A stretch of 64,000 nt of DNA from Armatimonadota bacterium (GTDB taxonomy: Bacteria; Armatimonadota; UBA5829; DTJY01): assembly GCA_017993055.1 (NCBI GenBank), contig JAGONM010000020.1:4075-68074 (forward strand), in the 5' to 3' direction. A program made the translations under genes and the position numbers. Under the pieces are notes generated by a model. It saw only the letters and a list, made by a program, of their open reading frames with translations. It made no database searches and had not been told where the DNA came from. Shown in pieces: positions 8,269 to 62,450 of the stretch; position 1 is the first letter of the stretch; every line of letters starts with the position of its first letter.

Positions 8269-9972
8269 CTAGCCGGCCATCACCCTCAGCAGCTCCGCCT
8301 CCGCCTCGCGGTTCCAGAACATGCCGTCGGTGAGTTTCGCGTAGACCGTCGGCAGCTTGTCCTTCAGATCGGGCACCGCCGTCAGCGGGAGGTCCTTGAT
8401 CTGCGGATAGATCACGACCTTGCCGGGATACGTCCCTTCCTTCGCCGCCTTCATGCCCTCCCACGACGCCTCGATCCCGCCGATCGCCGCCACCGACGTG
8501 TTTGTCGAGATCTTGCCCGACTCGGCCGCGTGGAGCGTGTCGAGCATGTCGCTTACCTTCGAGCCGCTGCTGCCCACGAACCGGACGTTGCTCATGAAGA
8601 CGCCGCTCAGGTCCATGCTCACGATCGTGCCGATCGGCACTCCCGCGAAGATGTTCATCAGGCCCTCGTCGGCGAGGTATCCCACCGCCTGCTCGATCAA
8701 TGCAGGCACGGGCGCGAGCATCACGATGTCGTCGAAGCAGTTGCCGTCCGTGAACGCCTCGATCAGCTTGTCGAAATCGTCCGCGCTCATCTCGTTCGGG
8801 TTCACGATAAGGAGCTCGATGCCGCGCCTCCGGGCTATCGGCTCGAACCGCTCGCGCAGGCTGTTCAGGCGCGCGGTGTCAATATCGGTGGCGAGCACCT
8901 TCTTCGGGCCGTCCTCCATTTCGAGCGCGCGCGGGAGGTGCATCTGCCCCATCGGTCCGCCCGTGCCTACGAACCACGCCGTCCCGCCGGCTCTCAACTC
9001 GCTCGGCATGCGGACCGGCTCGTAAGCGGATCCGATGTGCCTGCTCATCGTGCCGATGTAGGAGTGGTTCCAGTAGTGGACCTTGCCGACGTCTATGTTG
9101 ATCGGGCGGGTGAGCGGCTCCTCTGAGACGATGTTCATGATCCCCTGCTTGCCGAGGAGCGTCGCCGCCTTCTCGATCACATCCGGGTTCGCGCCGAGCA
9201 CGATTATGTCGTCGAAGCCGCCGTGCTTCTGCTCGAACGCCTCGAAGTCAATGGACTCGAAGGCGTCGGTCTCCCTCAGCTTGAAACGGCCGGCCTCCGA
9301 CCAGAACTTGAGCTGGTCCATCATCGGCCAGTCGAGTTCCGTCGCGACCACCAGCTCGGGCTCCACCTCGAAGTCGAGCGCGTAGTCGCCGTCGTCCATC
9401 GCCGCGCCGATGATCCAGAGCTTCCCGCCGGGCTTGATTGACTTCCGGCGGGTTATCTTGTAGCTCGCCACGACGCAAGCCCAGGGCTCGGCGAGAGCGG
9501 CCTCGGCGTATCCGGTCGAGTCGGCCATAGGTAGCAGGTAGCATCCCTCGTCGCCGTCGAGCATCTCCTTGCCGATCACCTGGTACTGGGTCTGCGCGCC
9601 GGGGAGGACGTACCCGAAGGCCATGCTCACGCCGTTCACGAAGACGTCGGCCTGGACGGTGAACCGCTGGCCGATCTTGAACCGGTCCGCCACCTTCTCG
9701 CCGACGCCCACGACGGTGACCGCCGCCTCGTGGCCGAGCGTAACGGGGTCATTCACCATATCGCGCCCGGTGATCCGGGGGTGCAGGTTGCCCTGGTTGA
9801 TCACCTTGATGTCGCTGAAGCAGATGCTCACGGCATCCACCCGGACCAGAAGCTCCTCCGGCCCGTACTCCGGCATCGGGTGCTCAACCGGCTTCCCGTC
9901 CTTGCCGAAGTTCTCCAGCCCCGCGCCGTAGAGATACCAGGTCAGTATCTTATCAGGAAGTGTATCGCTCAT
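8269..9972 (-). CDS. Zinc-binding alcohol dehydrogenase (MDR) family protein with C-terminal extension
   Basis: GHEAAVTVVGVG zinc-ADH signature in the N-terminal half. 567 aa. Confidence 0.5.
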   Translation of the reverse strand: MSDTLPDKILTWYLYGAGLENFGKDGKPVEHPMPEYGPEELLVRVDAVSICFSDIKVINQGNLHPRITGRDMVNDPVTLGHEAAVTVVGVGEKVADRFKIGQRFTVQADVFVNGVSMAFGYVLPGAQTQYQVIGKEMLDGDEGCYLLPMADSTGYAEAALAEPWACVVASYKITRRKSIKPGGKLWIIGAAMDDGDYALDFEVEPELVVATELDWPMMDQLKFWSEAGRFKLRETDAFESIDFEAFEQKHGGFDDIIVLGANPDVIEKAATLLGKQGIMNIVSEEPLTRPINIDVGKVHYWNHSYIGTMSRHIGSAYEPVRMPSELRAGGTAWFVGTGGPMGQMHLPRALEMEDGPKKVLATDIDTARLNSLRERFEPIARRRGIELLIVNPNEMSADDFDKLIEAFTDGNCFDDIVMLAPVPALIEQAVGYLADEGLMNIFAGVPIGTIVSMDLSGVFMSNVRFVGSSGSKVSDMLDTLHAAESGKISTNTSVAAIGGIEASWEGMKAAKEGTYPGKVVIYPQIKDLPLTAVPDLKDKLPTVYAKLTDGMFWNREAEAELLRVMAG

Positions 9973-10051
9973 ACTCGTGCTCCTACTCGTGATCGTACTC
10001 GGCGGCCGGTCCGACGGTCATGAATGTGCTCCACTCGCAGCACCGTCCAGT

Positions 10052-10150
10052 CCTGAGTGCGCGCTCTGGCGCGTGTATCGAAGGACGGCCTCCTGCAGCA
10101 AGAGCGCCCTTCGATACATGCCGTCATTCACCGGCATGCTCAGGGCTGTC
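10052..10150. repeat. Family R110 structured intergenic repeat (full copy)
   Basis: CCTGAGTGCGCGCTCTGGCGCGTGTATCGAAGGACGG...CCCTTCGATACATGCCGTCATTCACCGGCATGCTCAGGG, nested inverted repeats. Homologous copies at 62339-62450, 17528-17580 and 53159-53190. Confidence 0.6.
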
Positions 10151-12873: not shown

Positions 12874-12953
12874 CCGGTGCCGTCATTCCGAACTCGATTC
12901 GGAATCCATCCGGTCGCGCGCTGGATGCTGAATCAAGTTCAGCATGACGGTGC
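12874..12953. repeat. Family C structured repeat (two hairpins inside a CCGTCA/TGACGG outer stem)
   Basis: gCCGTCAttccgaaCTCGAttcggaat...atgctgaaTCAAGttcagcaTGACGGtgc. Related copies at 53064-53136 and 56768-56868. Confidence 0.5.
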
Positions 12954-14067: not shown

Positions 14068-14134
14068 CTGCCTCCTCGCGAAGTTTGACAGTCCCCGGTA
14101 CGGGTGGTATACTCCGAATAGACGCATGAACACA

Positions 14135-14235
14135 GCCGCTAGGGGTGCGTGGCGGAAACGCCCGCTGAGAGTCCCGCTCGACGGGACAACCCTCTGAACC
14201 TGATCCCGGATAATCCCGGCGTAGGGAAGCGGACG
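14135..14235 (+). promoter_or_regulatory. TPP (thiamine pyrophosphate) riboswitch / THI-box upstream of thiC
   Basis: aGGGGTGCgtggcggaaacgcccgCTGAGAgtcccgctcgacgggacaACCCTCTGAACCTGATCCCGGATAATCCCGGCGTAGGGAAgc matches the conserved THI-element cores (GGGGUGC, CUGAGA, ACCUGAUC.GGAUAAU.CCGGCG.AGGGA). Confidence 0.85.
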
Positions 14236-14446
14236 CGACGATCAGACGCCGTGTGCCCGCGATGAGGCCCACGGCGTTTTGTATGCGGAGAACACGGAAG
14301 CACGGAGGGAAACGGAACACACCGAGTTTCGCGAGGAAGCCATCAAAGCAGGAAAGGGAACTCCCGGTTTCCTGATACGGCACCCTTTTCCGTGACCTCC
14401 GCTTCCATCCGTTCAATCCGCGTTCTCCGAAAGAACGGTGAGGCAT

Positions 14447-17527: not shown

Positions 17528-17580
17528 CTGCAAGGCCGCCCTTCGATACGATGCTGTGCATCACTCAGGGCTGACGGGTT
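17528..17580. repeat. Partial Family R110 copy (right half)
   Basis: ctgcaaggccgcccttcgatacgatgctgtgcatcactcagggctg aligns to the right half of 10052-10150. Confidence 0.45.
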
Positions 17581-24177: not shown

Positions 24178-24243
24178 GGGCGGGAGTACAACTCCCGCCC
24201 TGGCATGCTCTCTACGTTGGGGCAGGAGTTGTACTCCTGCCCC
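24178..24243. repeat. Family H hairpins x2 (GGGnnGGAG-pentaloop-CTCCnnCCC)
   Basis: GGGCGGGAG-TACAA-CTCCCGCCC (24178-24200) and GGGGCAGGAG-TTGTA-CTCCTGCCCC (24219-24243). Confidence 0.6.
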
Positions 24244-29116: not shown

Positions 29117-29139
29117 TCATCCAACCTCGAGTATCTGTT

Positions 29140-29619
29140 CCGGGCGACTGAAGTCACGGCAACAAAGGCGCGAAGTCCACCTCCGTGGACTGAGGTATCC
29201 AGTGTCCGAAGGGACACTTCGTGCAGTGGTTGCCGCGGTTTCAACCGCCGGGTTTCATCTCACTTACTTTCTTGTACGGCTCCGGCACGGTGACGAACCT
29301 GAATCCCCGCGCCTTCAGCGCCGCCGACGTGGCAGATGCATGTATGTACCGGGCGACTGAAGTCACGGCAACAAGGGCGCGAAGTCCACCTCCGTGGACT
29401 GAGGTATCCAGTGTCCGAAGGGACACTTCGTGCCGTGGTTGCCGCGGTTTCAACCGCCGGGTTTCATTTCACTTACTTCCTTGTACAGGTCCGGCACCGT
29501 GACGAACCTGTCACCCTCAGCTATGTACCGGGCGACTGAAGTCACGGCAACAAGGGCGCGAAGTCCACCTCCGTGGACTGAGGTATCCAGTGTCCGAAGG
29601 GACACTTCGTGCCGTGGTT
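29140..29619. repeat. Tandem triplication (about 209 + 179 + 92 bp) of the 3' coding end of gene 29620-31323 plus a two-hairpin 3'UTR element
   Basis: Unit is ccgggcgactgaagtcacggcaacaagggcgcgaagtccacctccgtggactgaggtatccagtgtccgaagggacacttcgtgc... plus gene-3' remnants encoding LKARGFRFVTVPE(L/P/D)YK(E/K)VSEMKPGG. Hairpins GTCCAC-CTCC-GTGGAC and AGTGTCC-GAAG-GGACACT. Confidence 0.7.
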
Positions 29620-31323
29620 TCAACCGCCGGGTTTCATCTCACTTACTTCCTTGTACAGCTCCGGTACCGTGACGAACCTGAATCCCCGCGCCTTCAGTTC
29701 CGGGATCAGCGTTTTCAGCGCCGCGGGAACCGACGGTCCGCCGACGTGGCAGATGCACGTGCTGTAACCCGTCCGATCGGCGATCTCCGCCATCGCAAGC
29801 ACCCGAGCCCGCACGCCCTCGACCTGCCGGTCGTCGAGGAACAGGTCCTGCTGGAGGCACGGTACGCCCATCGCCCGCGCGACGTTCGCTCCGATCGCGA
29901 CCGGAGACGTGTTCGAGTCGTAGAACATCAGCCCGTGTTTCTTCGCCACTGAGAGAACGCTCTTCATCGTCTCCGGGTCGCTCGTCACCTTCGACCCGCG
30001 GTGGTTGCTGATTCCGACCTCGTGCGTCACCAGCACCATCCAGCTCTCCAGAAGCTCCCTGATCTCAGACTCGGTCTGCCCGACGGTGATCTCCTCGCTG
30101 CGGTAGTTCGCCTGCCCGAGCGCCTCCATCGGCGCGTGCAGGAAGATCGCGCAGCCCGCCGACCTGATCGCCTCGACGCAGGCCGGGGTCGCCCACGGCA
30201 TCACCGCGAACGTCATCGGTATCCCCAGGTCGAGAAGCGGCTTCACCTGCTCGACCTCCCGCCCATCGTCCACCATGATCGCGAGCAGTTTCTCCGGCCC
30301 GGTCCACTTCGAGGCAAACGGCTCCAGTCCCAGCCCACCGCCGCCGACACCCAGGTATGAGGAATAGAGCGGTGCCCCGTCGGACGTGTTCAGCCGCGCG
30401 GTGAAGTAGTCCCTGGAGCCGTTGTGCTCCGTCTTGTAAGCCTTTGCTGTCACGGGGAAGTCGTCGGAGCGCGTGAACCCCGTCACATATACCGCGCTGC
30501 TCCGGTCAACCGATACCGCGTCGGCGGTGTCTTCCGCCTTCCCGCCGAGCAGAGCGATCCAGGCGAGCTTCCCGGGGCTGTCAACCCGCGCTACGAAGCA
30601 ATCCGCGCCGGGGGAGCATACCGTGCCCGACAGGAATGCGTTGTTACTCGAGTCGTACATCACCCGCTTGCCTCTCGCGAGCGGCCACCCGCGTCCGAGC
30701 GCTTCCGAGAGAAGCTTCCCGGCCTCGTCCGGCGTCAGGCTCTTCGCGGCGGATTCGATCTTGACGCGGGTGATGTCAGTTCCCACTGCGGCGCAGGTGA
30801 CCTTGCCGCCGTCCACCGTGAATGTCAGGGTCACACCCGGCCACAGGTCCCGGTATGCGACTCCCTTGAACGTTGGGACGTCGGCAGTCCACTTCGAAGG
30901 ATCGTTCCCGATGATGTACCGGGCCTTCGCGGGCTGCTCCTCGAGACCCTCTATCTTCGCGCCGGAGCCCGTCTCCCGGAAGCTGATGCGGACGGTCTCG
31001 ACCTCAACCGCGGGGATCGGCCTTCGCCTCTCCGCGACCGCGTCGCGCAGGTCGGCGGGGACCTCCGAGTCGTTCTTGGCCGGGGAGGCGGCGCCGGTCT
31101 TGCGGCAGAGGGTGATCGAATCCCTGGTGACGAGCGCAGATCCTTCCGGCCCCGGGATGATGAACAGAACGTCCCTGTCTGATTGGCCCTCGTTCCGGAT
31201 GACCGGAGGCGAGAGCGGCGGGAGCGCGACCTGAGCCGGCCGTTGGCCGTACTCCTGGGCTGCCGACGGGATGGGGACAAAGAGCAATGCGAAGAGCAGC
31301 AGTCGTGCGCGGTGACCCGTCAT
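29620..31323 (-). CDS. Secreted protein: SBBP beta-propeller repeats plus divergent polysaccharide deacetylase (YibQ-like) domain
   Basis: YVTGFTRSDDFPVT SBBP-like repeat. C-terminal LAIMVDDG...MTFAVMPW...ICHVG resembles PF04748. Signal peptide. ATG 31323 with AAAGGTAAG RBS; ORF-track GTG at 31329. Confidence 0.45.
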   Translation of the reverse strand: MTGHRARLLLFALLFVPIPSAAQEYGQRPAQVALPPLSPPVIRNEGQSDRDVLFIIPGPEGSALVTRDSITLCRKTGAASPAKNDSEVPADLRDAVAERRRPIPAVEVETVRISFRETGSGAKIEGLEEQPAKARYIIGNDPSKWTADVPTFKGVAYRDLWPGVTLTFTVDGGKVTCAAVGTDITRVKIESAAKSLTPDEAGKLLSEALGRGWPLARGKRVMYDSSNNAFLSGTVCSPGADCFVARVDSPGKLAWIALLGGKAEDTADAVSVDRSSAVYVTGFTRSDDFPVTAKAYKTEHNGSRDYFTARLNTSDGAPLYSSYLGVGGGGLGLEPFASKWTGPEKLLAIMVDDGREVEQVKPLLDLGIPMTFAVMPWATPACVEAIRSAGCAIFLHAPMEALGQANYRSEEITVGQTESEIRELLESWMVLVTHEVGISNHRGSKVTSDPETMKSVLSVAKKHGLMFYDSNTSPVAIGANVARAMGVPCLQQDLFLDDRQVEGVRARVLAMAEIADRTGYSTCICHVGGPSVPAALKTLIPELKARGFRFVTVPELYKEVSEMKPGG

Positions 31324-31518
31324 TGACACTTACCTTTCCGGAAGGCAAAGAGGAACGCGGGGATGAATCGTCCCGCGCTCCTCCCTATGTTCGCTACCCG
31401 CTCTACGGTTTCCTCATCGCGGAAGAAGCACGATCTGCTCAGTAGGGGCGAAGCATTGGCTATCGGGCTCAGAGAGCCATCCGCGCCAAACGCCAATGCT
31501 TCGCCCCCACAGTGACCT

Positions 31519-50194: not shown

Positions 50195-50230
50195 GTCAGA
50201 CGAGTCATAAATATCGGACGGGTCTGACTA
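50195..50230. repeat. Family A array (degenerate)
   Basis: GTCAGAC ga GTCATAA at ATCGGAC gg GTCTGAC with 9-bp spacing. Overlaps the GH2 stop (50228-50230) and lies 12 nt upstream of the 49416 gene start. Confidence 0.45.
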
Positions 50231-52920
50231 CCGAATCGGTGATCCGCACCTCCGCACGGTCGGAAGCGGCGCATCCTCCGGCCAGGGGACCTCGTACGGG
50301 ATGCCCGGCAGGAGGTCGAAGACGTCGTCCGCGGCGGGCGAATCGCAATCCGGGTCGAGGCAGACCGCCCAGACGAAGGTCGGCGACGCGAACACCGCCC
50401 GATCTCCCCGTCGCTCGATCTCGATCTTCGGCTCGGCAAACTTCAGATCCTTGAATCGCGTGACGAAGACCCTGTTCTGGCTGACGGTGATTCCGTCCTT
50501 CAGCAGGATGGCGAACGCGCCGGACGAGTCCTCTCCCAGTGACCTCCAACTCTCCATCGGTATCTCGCCAATGATTGTCGAGGCGTTCGGCGCGAGCGTG
50601 ACCTTCACCTCCCCCAGCCCCTCCTTGTCAAGGAGGGGAGCAGCGCTGTCCCCCTTGATAAGGGGGACCGGCCTCTGGGCCGAGGGGGTCTCCCCACCGT
50701 CGAGCCGGAAGAGCCCGAAGCGGACCTCGCCGGTCCACGGTTCGGGCGTGTCGTTGACCCCGAAAATGAGTACCTTTTCGCCGTCCGTAACCGGTATCAC
50801 GTGCACCGGCGCGAAGGCCCGGCGGACCGGGTGGTATGCGAGCTTCCGGCGCAGGTAGTAGTCCACGATCGTCCACCCGTGGCTCGCGGGCCAGCAGTCG
50901 TTGTACATCCAGAAGATCGCCGACGACGAGCTGAACATCCGCCGGCGGAAGTTGTTCGAGTACTCTTGAAGCCCCTCGGCCTGAAGGATCCCGCTGTAGA
51001 AGCAGTAGTCCTCGAACGAGAGGTCGTCCGGCGTCTTCCCGAGCCACCGCTCCAGGATGTCGTAGCACACCCCCGAATCCTGCCAGTAGTTGCAGGCGTT
51101 GTCGTGGAACTCCCAGGATGGCGAGAAGACGCGCCGCTGGTCCTCGGGGAGGAACTGCCTGAGGGTCGCCATCCCGGACGCGCCCAGCACTCCGCCCTCG
51201 TTCGGGAAGCGGCTCACGTCCTTCCGGTACTCCCAGAAGTCTCCCTTGCCCGCGCCGAGCGAGACGTGCCAGGGATGCTGGTCGCCGGTCGTCGGGTCGG
51301 TCGGGTGGCGGCCCTCGGTGGAGTAGGGCGAGCTCGGCCAGTAAGGGCGCGACGGGTCCTCCTGCTTCACGATGCGCGGGATCTCCAGGTGATAGAGCGC
51401 GTAGTCCGGGTGCGGGTGATTGCGGTCGAACCCCCACGACCACGCCGCCCACTCGAGCTCGTTGTTCCCGCACCAGACGAGCAGGCTCGGGTGGGGGGAG
51501 AGGTCGCGCACCTGATGGGTTATCTCCCGGCGGACGTTCTGCAGGAACCCCGCGTCGTCGCTCGGGTACTTCGCGCAGGCGAAGATGAAATCGTGCCAGA
51601 CGAGCACCCCCATCTCGTCGCAGGCGTCCAGGAAGGCGTGGTCCGCGTAGAGCCCTCCGCCCCAGACGCGCAGGGCGTTGACGTTCGCCTCGACAGCGAG
51701 CCGGACGAGCTTCCGGTAGTGGTCGGCGTCCGGCCGCGCGTAGATCATGTCGGCCGGCACCCAGTTGCCGCCCTTGGCGAAGATCGGCCTGCCGTTCACC
51801 TCGAGTATGAAGTGCTCCCCCACCACCGGATGCTTGTCCTGGTTGATGCGGATGTTCCGGATGCCGGTGCGCCTGGCCGCCGCGTCAACCACCTCTCCGT
51901 CAACGAGCAGCTCGATCTCGACGGTGTAGAGCGGCTGTCCCCCGTGGGGGATCGGCCACCACAGCTCCGGGTCCGCGATCTCGACCGAGACGTCCTGGCG
52001 GGAGATGCCGGCCGGGAGTTCGACCTCAAGCTGTCCCCCTTGCCAAGGGGGACCGGCTTCCGGGCCGAGGGGGTTCTGTGTCGCGCGGCCTTCCGAAACC
52101 TCCCCCAACCCCTCCTTGATAAGGAGGGGAGCGTCCCGGCTGTCCCCCTTGCCAAGGGGGACCGGCCTCCGGGCCGAGGGGGTCTGGGGTCCGGACACCC
52201 GCACCTTCACGACCGCCTTCCGTTCGTCCGGGCTGTCCACGAAGACCCGCGCGTTGACGACCGCGCTCCTGCGGTCGTCCGAAAGCTCCGGGAACACCGC
52301 GACCGCGTCAATCCTCGGGGCGGAGGTCCACTCGAGTCGCACCGGCCGCCAGATGCCGACGTTGATCAGCCTCGGGCTCCAGTCCCAGGAGAACGAGTTC
52401 TGCGGCTTCCGGAGCCAGGGGCGCTTCGTCAGCCGGTTCTCGAGGCCGCCCGCGTACCCTTCCGCCTGCTTCTCCGCCACGGAGTAGAGGCCGCTCTCGA
52501 TCCGCACCGCTAGGACGTTCTCCCCCGCCTTCAGTTTCCCGGTGACGTCGAGCCTGCACGGTACGAAGCAGTTGTCGTGCTTCCCGATCTCCTCGCCGTT
52601 CAGGTAGATAACCGCGTCGAGGTCGAGGCCCTCGAAGACGAGCCATGCGCGCCGGGAGAGCGACTCCTCCGGCGCGTCGAACCGCGTGCGGTAGACCCAC
52701 ACCTGCTCCTCGACCCATCGGGCGGCCTGCGCGTTCAGGCCGAAATTGCAGTCCCCGATCAGCCCCTCGCGCTCGAGGTCCAGGTGGACCTCGCCGGGGA
52801 CGCGGGCTTCGATGAATATGCGCTCGTCGGCGTCCGGGCCGAGGTAGCTCTCCGGGCGGCCGTGCTGGCCGTCGAACCCTCTCAGCTTCCAGGCGCCGTT
52901 CAGACTCAATGTTGACAGCA
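50228..52920 (-). CDS. Glycoside hydrolase family 2 (beta-mannosidase/beta-galactosidase-like) containing in-frame repeat-derived insertions
   Basis: MLSTLSLNGAWKL... GH2 N-terminal sugar-binding and TIM-barrel regions. ATG 52920 with GAGGAG RBS; ORF-track start 52978. Insertions encode PVPL(G/I)KGDS..APLL(I/D)KEGLGEV. Confidence 0.65.
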
Positions 52921-53003
52921 TTGGGACTCCTCTGGTGGTTGCTGGGGAGATTGTACTCCGTGGGGCGAGCGCGCGCAAGGGGGCGGCTCGCCCCTGCTCG
53001 CAA

Positions 53004-53036
53004 TCGTACTCGTACTCCTACTCGTACTCGTACTCG
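53004..53036. repeat. (TACTCG)n hexanucleotide microsatellite, about 5.5 units
   Basis: cgTACTCGTACTCcTACTCGTACTCGTACTCGaa, about 90 nt upstream of the GH2 start. Confidence 0.7.
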
Positions 53037-53063: not shown

Positions 53064-53136
53064 TTGCCGTCATGCCGGACTCGATCCGGCATCCAGGAAG
53101 GCGCTTGATCCTGAACCGAGTTCAGGATGACGTGGT
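53064..53136. repeat. Family C structured repeat
   Basis: gCCGTCAtgccggaCTCGAtccggcat...atcctgaacCGAgttcaggaTGACGtgg. Confidence 0.5.
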
Positions 53137-53339
53137 CGTTGCGCGACGGAGACCGTGAGCCCTGAGTGCGCGCTCCGGCGCGTGCCCTGAACTCGTTTCA
53201 GGGGAAGGGCGGCTGGGGCCGCAATCCCCCGCATTTCGCCAAGACACATGGGCCGTTTACGCAGGCCCGCCCACAAAGCGGGCCTGCAAACGTGGCCTTC
53301 CGTGAAATGCATCTTCGCCCTTATCAGATTCGCGCTCGG

Positions 53340-59498: not shown

Positions 59499-59666
59499 TA
59501 TGGGACATATGCAACGTTCGGGCTGGAGTTGCACTCCAGCCCGCGATACCAGTTGGGGAGTTCAACTCCCCATCCAGCCGCGCGGGAAGGAGTACAACTC
59601 CTTCCCGAACGTGTGTCTATCGGTAGGGCGTACAACATGGGACTCATGGGACGGATGGGACGGCTG
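59499..59666. repeat. Composite intergenic region: one ATGGGAC unit, three Family H hairpins, then an ATGGGAC x3 array
   Basis: TATGGGACATATG; GGGCTGGAG-TTGCA-CTCCAGCCC; GGGGAG-TTCAA-CTCCCC; GGGAAGGAG-TACAA-CTCCTTCCC; ACATGGGAC TCATGGGAC GGATGGGAC GGCTGTCAG. Confidence 0.65.
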
Positions 59667-62338: not shown

Positions 62339-62450
62339 GCCCTGAGTGCGCCTCTGGGCGTGTATCGAAGGGCGGCCTACGGAGTGCCAACCCTCGTGTA
62401 GATGCGACCGTCCTTCGATACACGCCGTCATTCACCGGCGCACTCAGGAC
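62339..62450. repeat. Family R110 structured repeat (full copy, 11-bp outer stem and 15-bp inner stem)
   Basis: agCCCTGAGTGCGCCtctgGGCGTGTATCGAAGGGCGG...CCGTCCTTCGATACAcGCCGTCATTCACCGGCGCACTCAGGac. Confidence 0.6.

Follow-up and report, generated by a model that had tools for sequence, protein, structure and literature searches.

GC-rich palindromic repeat modules dispersed in an Armatimonadota lineage and translated in-frame within a beta-mannosidase gene

We asked why a glycoside hydrolase family 2 (GH2) gene on Armatimonadota contig JAGONM010000020.1 carries five palindromes of two kinds within its open reading frame (ORF). The window, that is, the whole stretch of DNA analysed, comprises 64,000 nucleotides, and its first-pass annotation had left two options: a mobile palindromic element family or a selected flexible loop. 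We found that the palindromes are parts of two modules, here called X and Y, which are dispersed repeats located both between genes and in-frame within unrelated genes. In the GH2 gene they form lineage-specific insertions in predicted loops of an enzyme that is under purifying selection. X and Y very probably represent a modular, GC-rich palindromic family of the repetitive extragenic palindrome (REP)/bacterial interspersed mosaic element (BIME) or Rickettsia palindromic element (RPE) type, dispersed in one Armatimonadota lineage and tolerated in the loops of this enzyme. Of the two options, the mobile family is thus supported, and a selected loop is not needed as an explanation, although it may still apply.

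Two composite inserts in the mannosidase gene

The host gene encodes a GH2 beta-mannosidase. Its product matched the Pfam families Glyco_hydro_2_N2 (6e-45), Glyco_hydro_2_N, Glyco_hydro_2 and Mannosidase_ig, the closest solved structure was the beta-mannosidase 5n6u (4.7e-123), and a Foldseek search with the model of the protein returned GH2 beta-mannosidases/exo-beta-mannanases. The C-terminal 197 aa, queried alone, had no sequence match in the PDB. Both the GH2 domain set and the conserved catalytic Glu motifs are present, and in an alignment of 18 homologues the catalytic motifs WCGNNELEW and FPNEGG are invariant. The gene, its two composite inserts (N-site and C-site) and their modules are as follows.

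50228-52921, minus strand: GH2 beta-mannosidase gene, 897 aa from the ATG at 52921; the stop-to-stop ORF is 50228-52978
50606-50692, minus strand: C-site composite insert, 87 nt, 29 codons, aa 744-772, ETPSAQRPVPLIKGDS-AAPLLDKEGLGEV; Y-X on the + strand
50607-50641, unstranded: Y module, copy 1; head ACCTCCCCCAG, palindrome CCCCTCCTTGTCAAGGAGGGG (50618-50638) and AGC
50645-50692, unstranded: X module, copy A; GCT, palindrome 50648-50668, small hairpin CGGCCTCTGGGCCG (50669-50682) and tail AGGGGGTCTC
52031-52186, minus strand: N-site composite insert, 156 nt, 52 codons, aa 246-297, QTPSARRPVPLGKGDS-RDAPLLIKEGLGEV-SEGRATQ-NPLGPEAGPPWQGGQ; X-spacer-Y-X on the + strand
52030-52077, unstranded: X module, copy C; palindrome 52033-52053, hairpin 52054-67; third reverse frame, peptide NPLGPEAGPPWQGGQ
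52097-52132, unstranded: Y module, copy 2; AACCTCCCCCAA, palindrome 52109-52129 and AGC
52139-52186, unstranded: X module, copy B; palindrome 52142-52162, hairpin 52163-76; peptide QTPSARRPVPLGKGDS; the copy retained in strain L076 (see below)

The three units of about 45 nt that had been described around the first palindrome are indeed present, starting at 50648, 52033 and 52142. Each holds GTCCCCCTTGnnAAGGGGGAC (50648-50668, 52033-52053 and 52142-52162) followed by CGGC(C/T)TC(T/C)GGGCCGAGGGGGT, also written CGGCyTCyGGGCCGAGGGGGT. The second palindrome, CCCCTCCTTGnnAAGGAGGGG, likewise occurs twice, although its earlier coordinates were off by 1-3 nt and are corrected here to 50618-50638 and 52109-52129. 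The chance expectation for either palindrome was 0.00 matches in dinucleotide-preserving shuffles. On the + strand, the X module (~48 nt) consists of GCT or GAT, GTCCCCCTTGnnAAGGGGGAC (a 21-nt palindrome), CGGCCTCnGGGCCG (a 14-nt hairpin) and AGGGGGTCTG; the 14-nt hairpin, present in each X unit, has the form CGGCC-nnnn-GGCCG. The Y module consists of ACCTCCCCC and CCCCTCCTTnnnAAGGAGGGG, with the window form reading (A)ACCTCCCCCAr, a 21-nt palindrome and AGC on the + strand. Module sizes are 36-52 nt at ~70% GC. The repeat units first seen as separate are therefore real, but they are modules of two composite inserts of 87 nt and 156 nt. When folded as RNA, the C-site composite formed three hairpins closed by pairing between the Y head and the X tail (-51.8 kcal/mol, z = -2.9); in this predicted fold ACCTCCCCC pairs with GGGGGT over a short stretch. 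Rfam held no family for the inserts, the sole match, whalefall-1, being at chance level (E = 0.13).

As had been claimed, the reading frame is preserved: the ORF runs uninterrupted through all five palindromes, and both composite inserts are multiples of 3. The repeated peptides quoted earlier are correct except for the unit at 52030-52077, which is read as NPLGPEAGPPWQGGQ and not as TPSA.RPVPL.KGDS. The spacing between the N-site X copies is 109 nt, or 1 mod 3, and for this reason the two are read in different frames. Consensus X, whose conserved span is ~16 codons, is stop-free in all six frames, a property shared by ~10% of random 48-mers of equal composition.

Just upstream of the mannosidase start, at 53004-53036, lies a hexamer tandem, (TCGTAC) x 5.5. 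A similar run of TACTCG type, at 9960-10000 and conserved in the relative L043, lies upstream of the minus-strand gene that ends at 9972; these hexamer tandems may be a promoter-proximal motif.

Dispersal of X and Y between and within genes

A search for other copies of the palindromes, in coding and non-coding DNA, had been proposed, and such copies exist. The exact 25-mer of X was found at 8 separate loci in the complete Armatimonadetes metagenome-assembled genome (MAG) OY970325.1 (5.37 Mb) and in one other bin, and a slightly relaxed pattern was found on 64 metagenome contigs, 35 of them from sample Ga0315273. These are minimum copy numbers: at least 8 exact-25-mer copies in the 5.37-Mb genome, and 35 contigs in one sample. 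OY970325.1 and the window share genes at only ~72-77% nucleotide identity, and Ga0315273 holds a relative that is ~78-90% identical to the window in long collinear matches. Viral contigs scanned for X gave no match. In 76 aligned X copies, conservation begins at (G)AT on the left and stops at GGGGGTyTG on the right, and no target-site duplication was visible in their flanks.

Most X copies are intergenic and belong to mosaic X/Y clusters, with 51 of 64 copies not classed as coding. In OY970325.1 some copies come after stop codons (L004, L009), one is situated just upstream of the start codon of a gene (L007), and X is joined to Y modules and other motifs as X-Y and X-Y-Y. The modules occur in the orders X-Y, X-Y-Y, Y-X and X-Y-X with variable linkers; related Y modules adjoin X in L001, L002, L003, L007, L013, L024, L051 and L053, among others, and X subfamilies with a different third hairpin exist.

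This distribution bears on whether slippage or local duplication created the Pro/Gly-rich loops of the mannosidase where they are, without any copy of a mobile family. An intragenic duplication is conceivable in that copies A and B are ~90% alike and both are of the GCT variant. However, near-identical units of 46-48 nt with mutually unrelated flanks were present at more than 70 loci, from several samples and one complete genome, and composites of the window type (GCT variant, short Y, Y-X order, 9-13 nt linkers) were found in non-coding DNA of L013, L023 and L053. An origin in place is already contradicted by this evidence, and we regard it as barely credible. Judged by their flanking sequences, which differ, the metagenomic copies can also be excluded as fragments of this one gene.

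We next considered X copies within other genes. Ten of the 61 X copies outside the window lie in ORFs that have a coding pattern of GC content at the three codon positions (GC1/GC2/GC3) on both sides of the repeat, and Pfam confirmed seven host proteins.

FGGY glycerol kinase: X-Y-X composite between the N and C domains
Two GHMP kinases: in-frame X in each
M16 peptidase: in-frame X
Pyr_redox_2, pyridine-nucleotide-disulphide oxidoreductase: in-frame X
URO-D-like protein: two X copies in opposite orientation
Second GH2 protein: in-frame X

Both orientations are represented among the in-frame copies, which use three of the six reading frames. Among the translations of 13 in-frame copies, QTPSAQRPVPLrKGDi accounted for 8, DVPLaKGDRPLGRGGL for 3 and DPLGPEAGPPsQGG for 2.

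The insert sites in relatives of the mannosidase

Whether the inserted segments are lineage-specific had been posed as a question, and the alignment of homologues supports this. Loops at both sites are ~7-8 residues long in nearly all of the 18 aligned proteins, most of them having a ~7-aa loop (LP.D.T.) at the C-site and 'PEA...' loops of ~7 aa at the N-site. The C-site insert is shared only by P0012, a 98%-identical fragment. Full-length homologues among the 120 listed are mostly 826-845 aa long, compared with 897 aa in the window, and PDB alignments of the host protein are interrupted at about 243-297, the N-site.

Long loops are confined to the closest relatives, P0001, P0002 and P0003, and the DNA that encodes them differs from the window inserts. 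In P0001 (85% identical in the alignment; L074:5800-5900) the C-site holds a nested near-perfect palindrome of ~88 nt. In P0002 (79%; L075:12110-12250) it holds four tandem CTCCCC-n-GGGGAG hairpins, a type found again on other contigs. P0003 (74%; L077:1400-1560) carries CCCTCTCCC-n-GGAGAGGG hairpins (PLSLEGEG-type) at the N-site only. P0001 and P0002 also have in common an N-site segment of ~46 nt, which is bounded by exactly the same flanks as the X-Y-X of the window and is unrelated to it; considered as a decayed X, this segment showed no convincing similarity by eye, with no formal comparison made. Because sister orthologues carry different inserts in the same loops, both loops have been colonised repeatedly by unrelated hairpin repeats, which in each case took the place of the resident loop sequence and did not merely interrupt it. 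Separately, Pro-rich inserts are present at other positions in two orthologues, P0065 (columns 139-157) and P0041 (columns 680-698), as LSTPISAPPSLNPQLSTLN and IPPPTIPPATIPPGILPGG (alignment A1), so that further loops of this enzyme family also accept insertions.

To place the inserts in the fold, an AlphaFold model of the mannosidase was built from a 19-sequence alignment; its mean predicted local distance difference test (pLDDT) score of 69 is mediocre. At the N-site, pLDDT was below 50 at residues 247-291, between strands 234-246 and 294-302, and the C-site residues with such values are 745-747 and 755-768, which fall between strands 729-739 and 770-776. Thus, in this mediocre model, both inserts are low-confidence loops between beta-strands of immunoglobulin (Ig)-like domains and may lie at the surface. 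They are predicted to be disordered and to lie in beta-hairpin loops of what we take to be Ig-like domains 2 and 4, an assignment made from the Pfam matches and the published BtMan2A architecture.

Strain L076, an independent assembly from another metagenome, allowed a comparison at short distance. It is 98% identical to the window at the protein level and differs at 64 of 1692 shared nucleotides (3.8% of sites; synonymous divergence dS 0.13). The C-site insert is identical (0 differences in 87 nt; ~3.3 expected, P ~0.04), possibly owing to hairpin constraint, gene conversion or chance. At the N-site, L076:1-340 has a single X in place of the X-Y-X at window 52030-52186 and is 109 nt shorter; for this reason the two halves of its mannosidase gene are out of frame with each other, and gene prediction divided it at this point. 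The difference would be explained by an assembly collapse or by a recent deletion between direct X repeats. Since an independent assembly carries the same C-site insert and also has X at its N-site, the inserts themselves are not an assembly artefact.

The ratio of nonsynonymous to synonymous divergence (dN/dS) was 0.098 over the 1692 nt shared with L076. As L076 has the identical C-site insert, the mannosidase has stayed under purifying selection since insertion, and the inserts are best read as tolerated passengers because the enzyme is still under such selection. One could instead suppose that the gene is decaying, that repeats accumulate in it as it is not needed, and that the open frame is a coincidence aided by stop-free elements. 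In favour of this are the frameshifted L076 gene, with one X for X-Y-X, and the location of all three X copies of the 64-kb window in one gene. However, the 897-codon ORF is intact with inserts that are multiples of 3, the catalytic motifs show no variation, dN/dS has been low since divergence from L076, and the L076 difference is explicable by the deletion or collapse described above. Decay is therefore very unlikely in our judgement.

Conversely, the inserts might have been exapted, either as peptides, by giving the Ig-like domains flexible or binding loops, or as mRNA/DNA hairpins acting in translation pausing, mRNA stability or recombination, and be kept by selection. The unchanged C-site insert in L076, the strength of the hairpins and the restriction of the 13 in-frame copies to three of six frames, with 8 in the TPSAQRPVPL.KGD frame, can all be cited for this. 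Yet the zero-difference result is marginal and gene conversion would give the same, the frame bias is explicable by selection against Cys/Trp/Arg-rich alternative frames, and the in-frame copies are not independent. Moreover, the element is also found in unrelated enzymes and mostly between genes, and orthologues function with short loops or unrelated inserts. We consider exaptation distinctly improbable, if somewhat less so than decay.

Spread of the modules and relation to known systems

Together, these observations suggest a route by which the tolerated inserts may have arisen. X (~48 nt, two hairpins and a G5 tail) and Y (a C5 head and one or two hairpins) normally reside between genes in mosaic clusters and occasionally land inside coding sequence. 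Because X is stop-free in six frames with a conserved span of ~16 codons, an insertion in a tolerant surface loop could add a Pro/Gly-rich hydrophilic peptide without truncating the protein. Selection would then retain only those intragenic insertions that preserve frame and fold, while intergenic copies would persist freely. In the mannosidase, two beta-hairpin loops, in Ig-like domains 2 and 4, have been colonised. The elements may move by transposition, possibly in the form of single-stranded hairpins on which a Y1/HUH-type enzyme acts, by analogy with REPs and REP-associated tyrosine transposases (RAYTs) (PMC3733652). The same loops may be struck repeatedly as they are permissive, or resident hairpins may attract further insertions.

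Several points weigh against dispersal of a mobile family into tolerant loops. The resident loop residues are missing at both sites, which indicates replacement, or insertion with deletion, and not simple insertion. No clean pair of empty and filled sites was found, so that the exact ends, a target-site duplication and the 48-nt length are unproven. No X-associated transposase or RAYT was present in the 482 kb examined. The 64-kb window holds no copy of either palindrome beyond these five, and the copy number in its own genome is not given by the window. The loop assignment depends on a weak model (mean pLDDT 69). Finally, the in-frame cases depend on DNA contigs, and protein searches with the insert peptides were empty: the 52-aa N-site insert gave 0 hits when 1.84 billion representatives were searched exhaustively with phmmer, and a word-index search with a synthetic concatenation of X and Y peptides gave 2 candidates, none of which scored. 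Short, biased peptides are evidently not retrievable by such searches.

Because the resident loops were replaced, a transposase-free spread is a live alternative, with sequence passing from one hairpin-bearing site to another through recombination, gene conversion or template switching. It would also fit the presence of different hairpin families in the same loops of sister lineages, the variation of Y-X linkers from 9 to 13 nt, the X versus X-Y-X polymorphism, and the lack of a visible target-site duplication or linked transposase. On the other hand, copies occur at many unrelated sites without homology for recombination, and the conserved (G)AT left edge and GGGGGTyTG right edge resemble the ends of a defined element. 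We therefore rate this route as improbable, but as the most serious of the alternatives.

Candidates for an empty site or a mobiliser were also considered and rejected. At the X copy of L043 the window has a different intergenic sequence, which leaves the boundaries unreadable, and for the GH2 gene of L015 the homologues are only ~55% identical, with an ambiguous gap of 12-16 aa. The ORFs between paired X copies (L037, L068) are ordinary genes. A tblastn search with an approximate E. coli RAYT query, used as a lead only, matched one RAYT-like gene, at L066:6950-8090 (Y1_Tnp 22 bits, Pfam cut-off 23); on either side of it lie tandem arrays of an unrelated repeat and not X. This gene and its arrays form a REPtron-like arrangement in their own right, for a repeat other than X.

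A more far-reaching proposal is that X is shaped for life inside genes, having a conserved span of exactly 16 codons, being open in six frames and encoding loop-friendly peptides. New copies would prefer resident hairpin inserts or adjacent DNA, permissive loops would become hypervariable cassettes swapped between unrelated palindromic families within the genus, and direct repeats could switch genes off by deletion, as the 109-nt frameshift of L076 might illustrate. We offer this as speculation that is unlikely to hold as a whole.

In-frame palindromic repeats are textbook knowledge for Rickettsia and have been noted for REPs in a few other bacteria. The X and Y insertions extend in-frame colonisation by palindromic repeats to Armatimonadota, a phylum that is mostly uncultured and has received little study. 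Four features make the case unusually clean. The same element occurs between genes and in at least 8 different enzymes; sister lineages have unrelated hairpin inserts in two defined loops of a single enzyme; there is evidence that purifying selection has continued to act on the host gene; and in a sister strain the frame is broken by a natural polymorphism, X versus X-Y-X. The case is a usable system for how small repeats generate variation in protein loops. It is also a warning for annotation, as Pro/Gly-rich 'linkers' in MAGs can be repeat elements.

The window contains other repeats and one riboswitch. At 29120-29640 there are three tandem units of ~180-209 nt, each made of the duplicated last 20-25 codons of the minus-strand gene 29620-31329 (...RFVTVPELYKEVSEMKPGG) and an imperfect palindrome of ~110 nt. 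A 53-nt piece of these units is 96% identical to L009:31-83 in OY970325.1, and the units matched no Rfam family and no tRNA; they look like another mobile hairpin element, repeatedly inserted at a gene 3' end. Further REP-like modules are located at 10050-10118, 12885-12945, 17538-17550, 24178-24243, 53072-53182, 59519-59607 and 62361-62422, some of them directly upstream of the mannosidase gene. Their types are GTCCTGAGTGCGCGCTCyGGCGCG, which is also present in L053, inverted pairs of GCCCTTCGATACA, CCGTCATkCCGrACTCGATyCGGmAT-type palindromes and clusters of GGAGTnnnnACTCC hairpins. A thiamine pyrophosphate (TPP) riboswitch lies at 14131-14244 on the + strand (68.2 bits, gathering score 54.3).

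Among known systems, RPEs (RPE-1 to RPE-10; Ogata et al. 2000, as summarised in PMC10969869 and PMC3733652) are dispersed palindromic repeats, many of which lie in-frame in unrelated, apparently functional genes. They add a conserved peptide that is compatible with the host fold, and the family is also intergenic (PMC10969869, PMC3733652). X and Y are similarly dispersed, hairpin-forming and present in-frame in unrelated open genes, with three copies in this GH2 gene and ten in other ORFs, as well as between genes; the earlier suggestion of a resemblance to RPEs is thus borne out in behaviour. In contrast, RPEs are ~100-150 bp long, AT-rich and restricted to Rickettsia (PMC10969869 and general background), whereas the X/Y modules measure 36-52 nt, are ~70% GC and mosaic, and occur in Armatimonadota; this distinction is drawn from size, composition and host, without sequence alignment to RPEs.

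REPs are hairpins of 20-40 nt that are mostly extragenic, located downstream of genes and often clustered (PMC3733652). A smaller number are found within known genes, alone, as dimers or in groups, where they encode ~20-30 aa, some of them twice per ORF (PMC3733652). Intragenic REPs of the GTAG and CGTC superfamilies were described by Di Nocera et al. (2013, PMC3733652), with examples from Opitutus terrae, R. conorii and Xanthomonas recB, and different REPs occupy about the same recB site in two Xanthomonas species (PMC3733652). X and Y share with REPs the short imperfect palindrome (21 nt), repetition, mostly extragenic location and clustering. They differ in that no REPtron or RAYT is linked to them, and their host phylum lies outside the survey of Di Nocera et al. 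Neither a GTAG nor a CGTC tag is present in the X or Y consensus on either strand.

The X/Y clusters also resemble the BIMEs of E. coli, in that both are mosaics of a few hairpin modules and linkers in variable order and orientation. BIMEs are extragenic, whereas X/Y modules are found in coding sequence as well. In-frame fusions are further known from transposable elements of the miniature inverted-repeat type (MITEs), namely ERIC, BOX, QMITE1 and Anabaena MITEs (reviewed in PMC10969869). Like these, X and Y are small, non-autonomous elements that can be translated within host ORFs; unlike them, they lack clear 15-30-bp terminal inverted repeats, a visible target-site duplication and a parent insertion sequence, and X alone is shorter than typical MITEs.

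A full-text literature search returned no paper linking Armatimonadota with repetitive extragenic palindromes. Taken together, the analogy with RPEs holds for behaviour and not for membership, since sequence, size and host phylum differ. X and Y are best placed as a new REP/RPE-like family, a member of neither the RPEs nor the GTAG/CGTC REPs, with behaviour that is already known from both.

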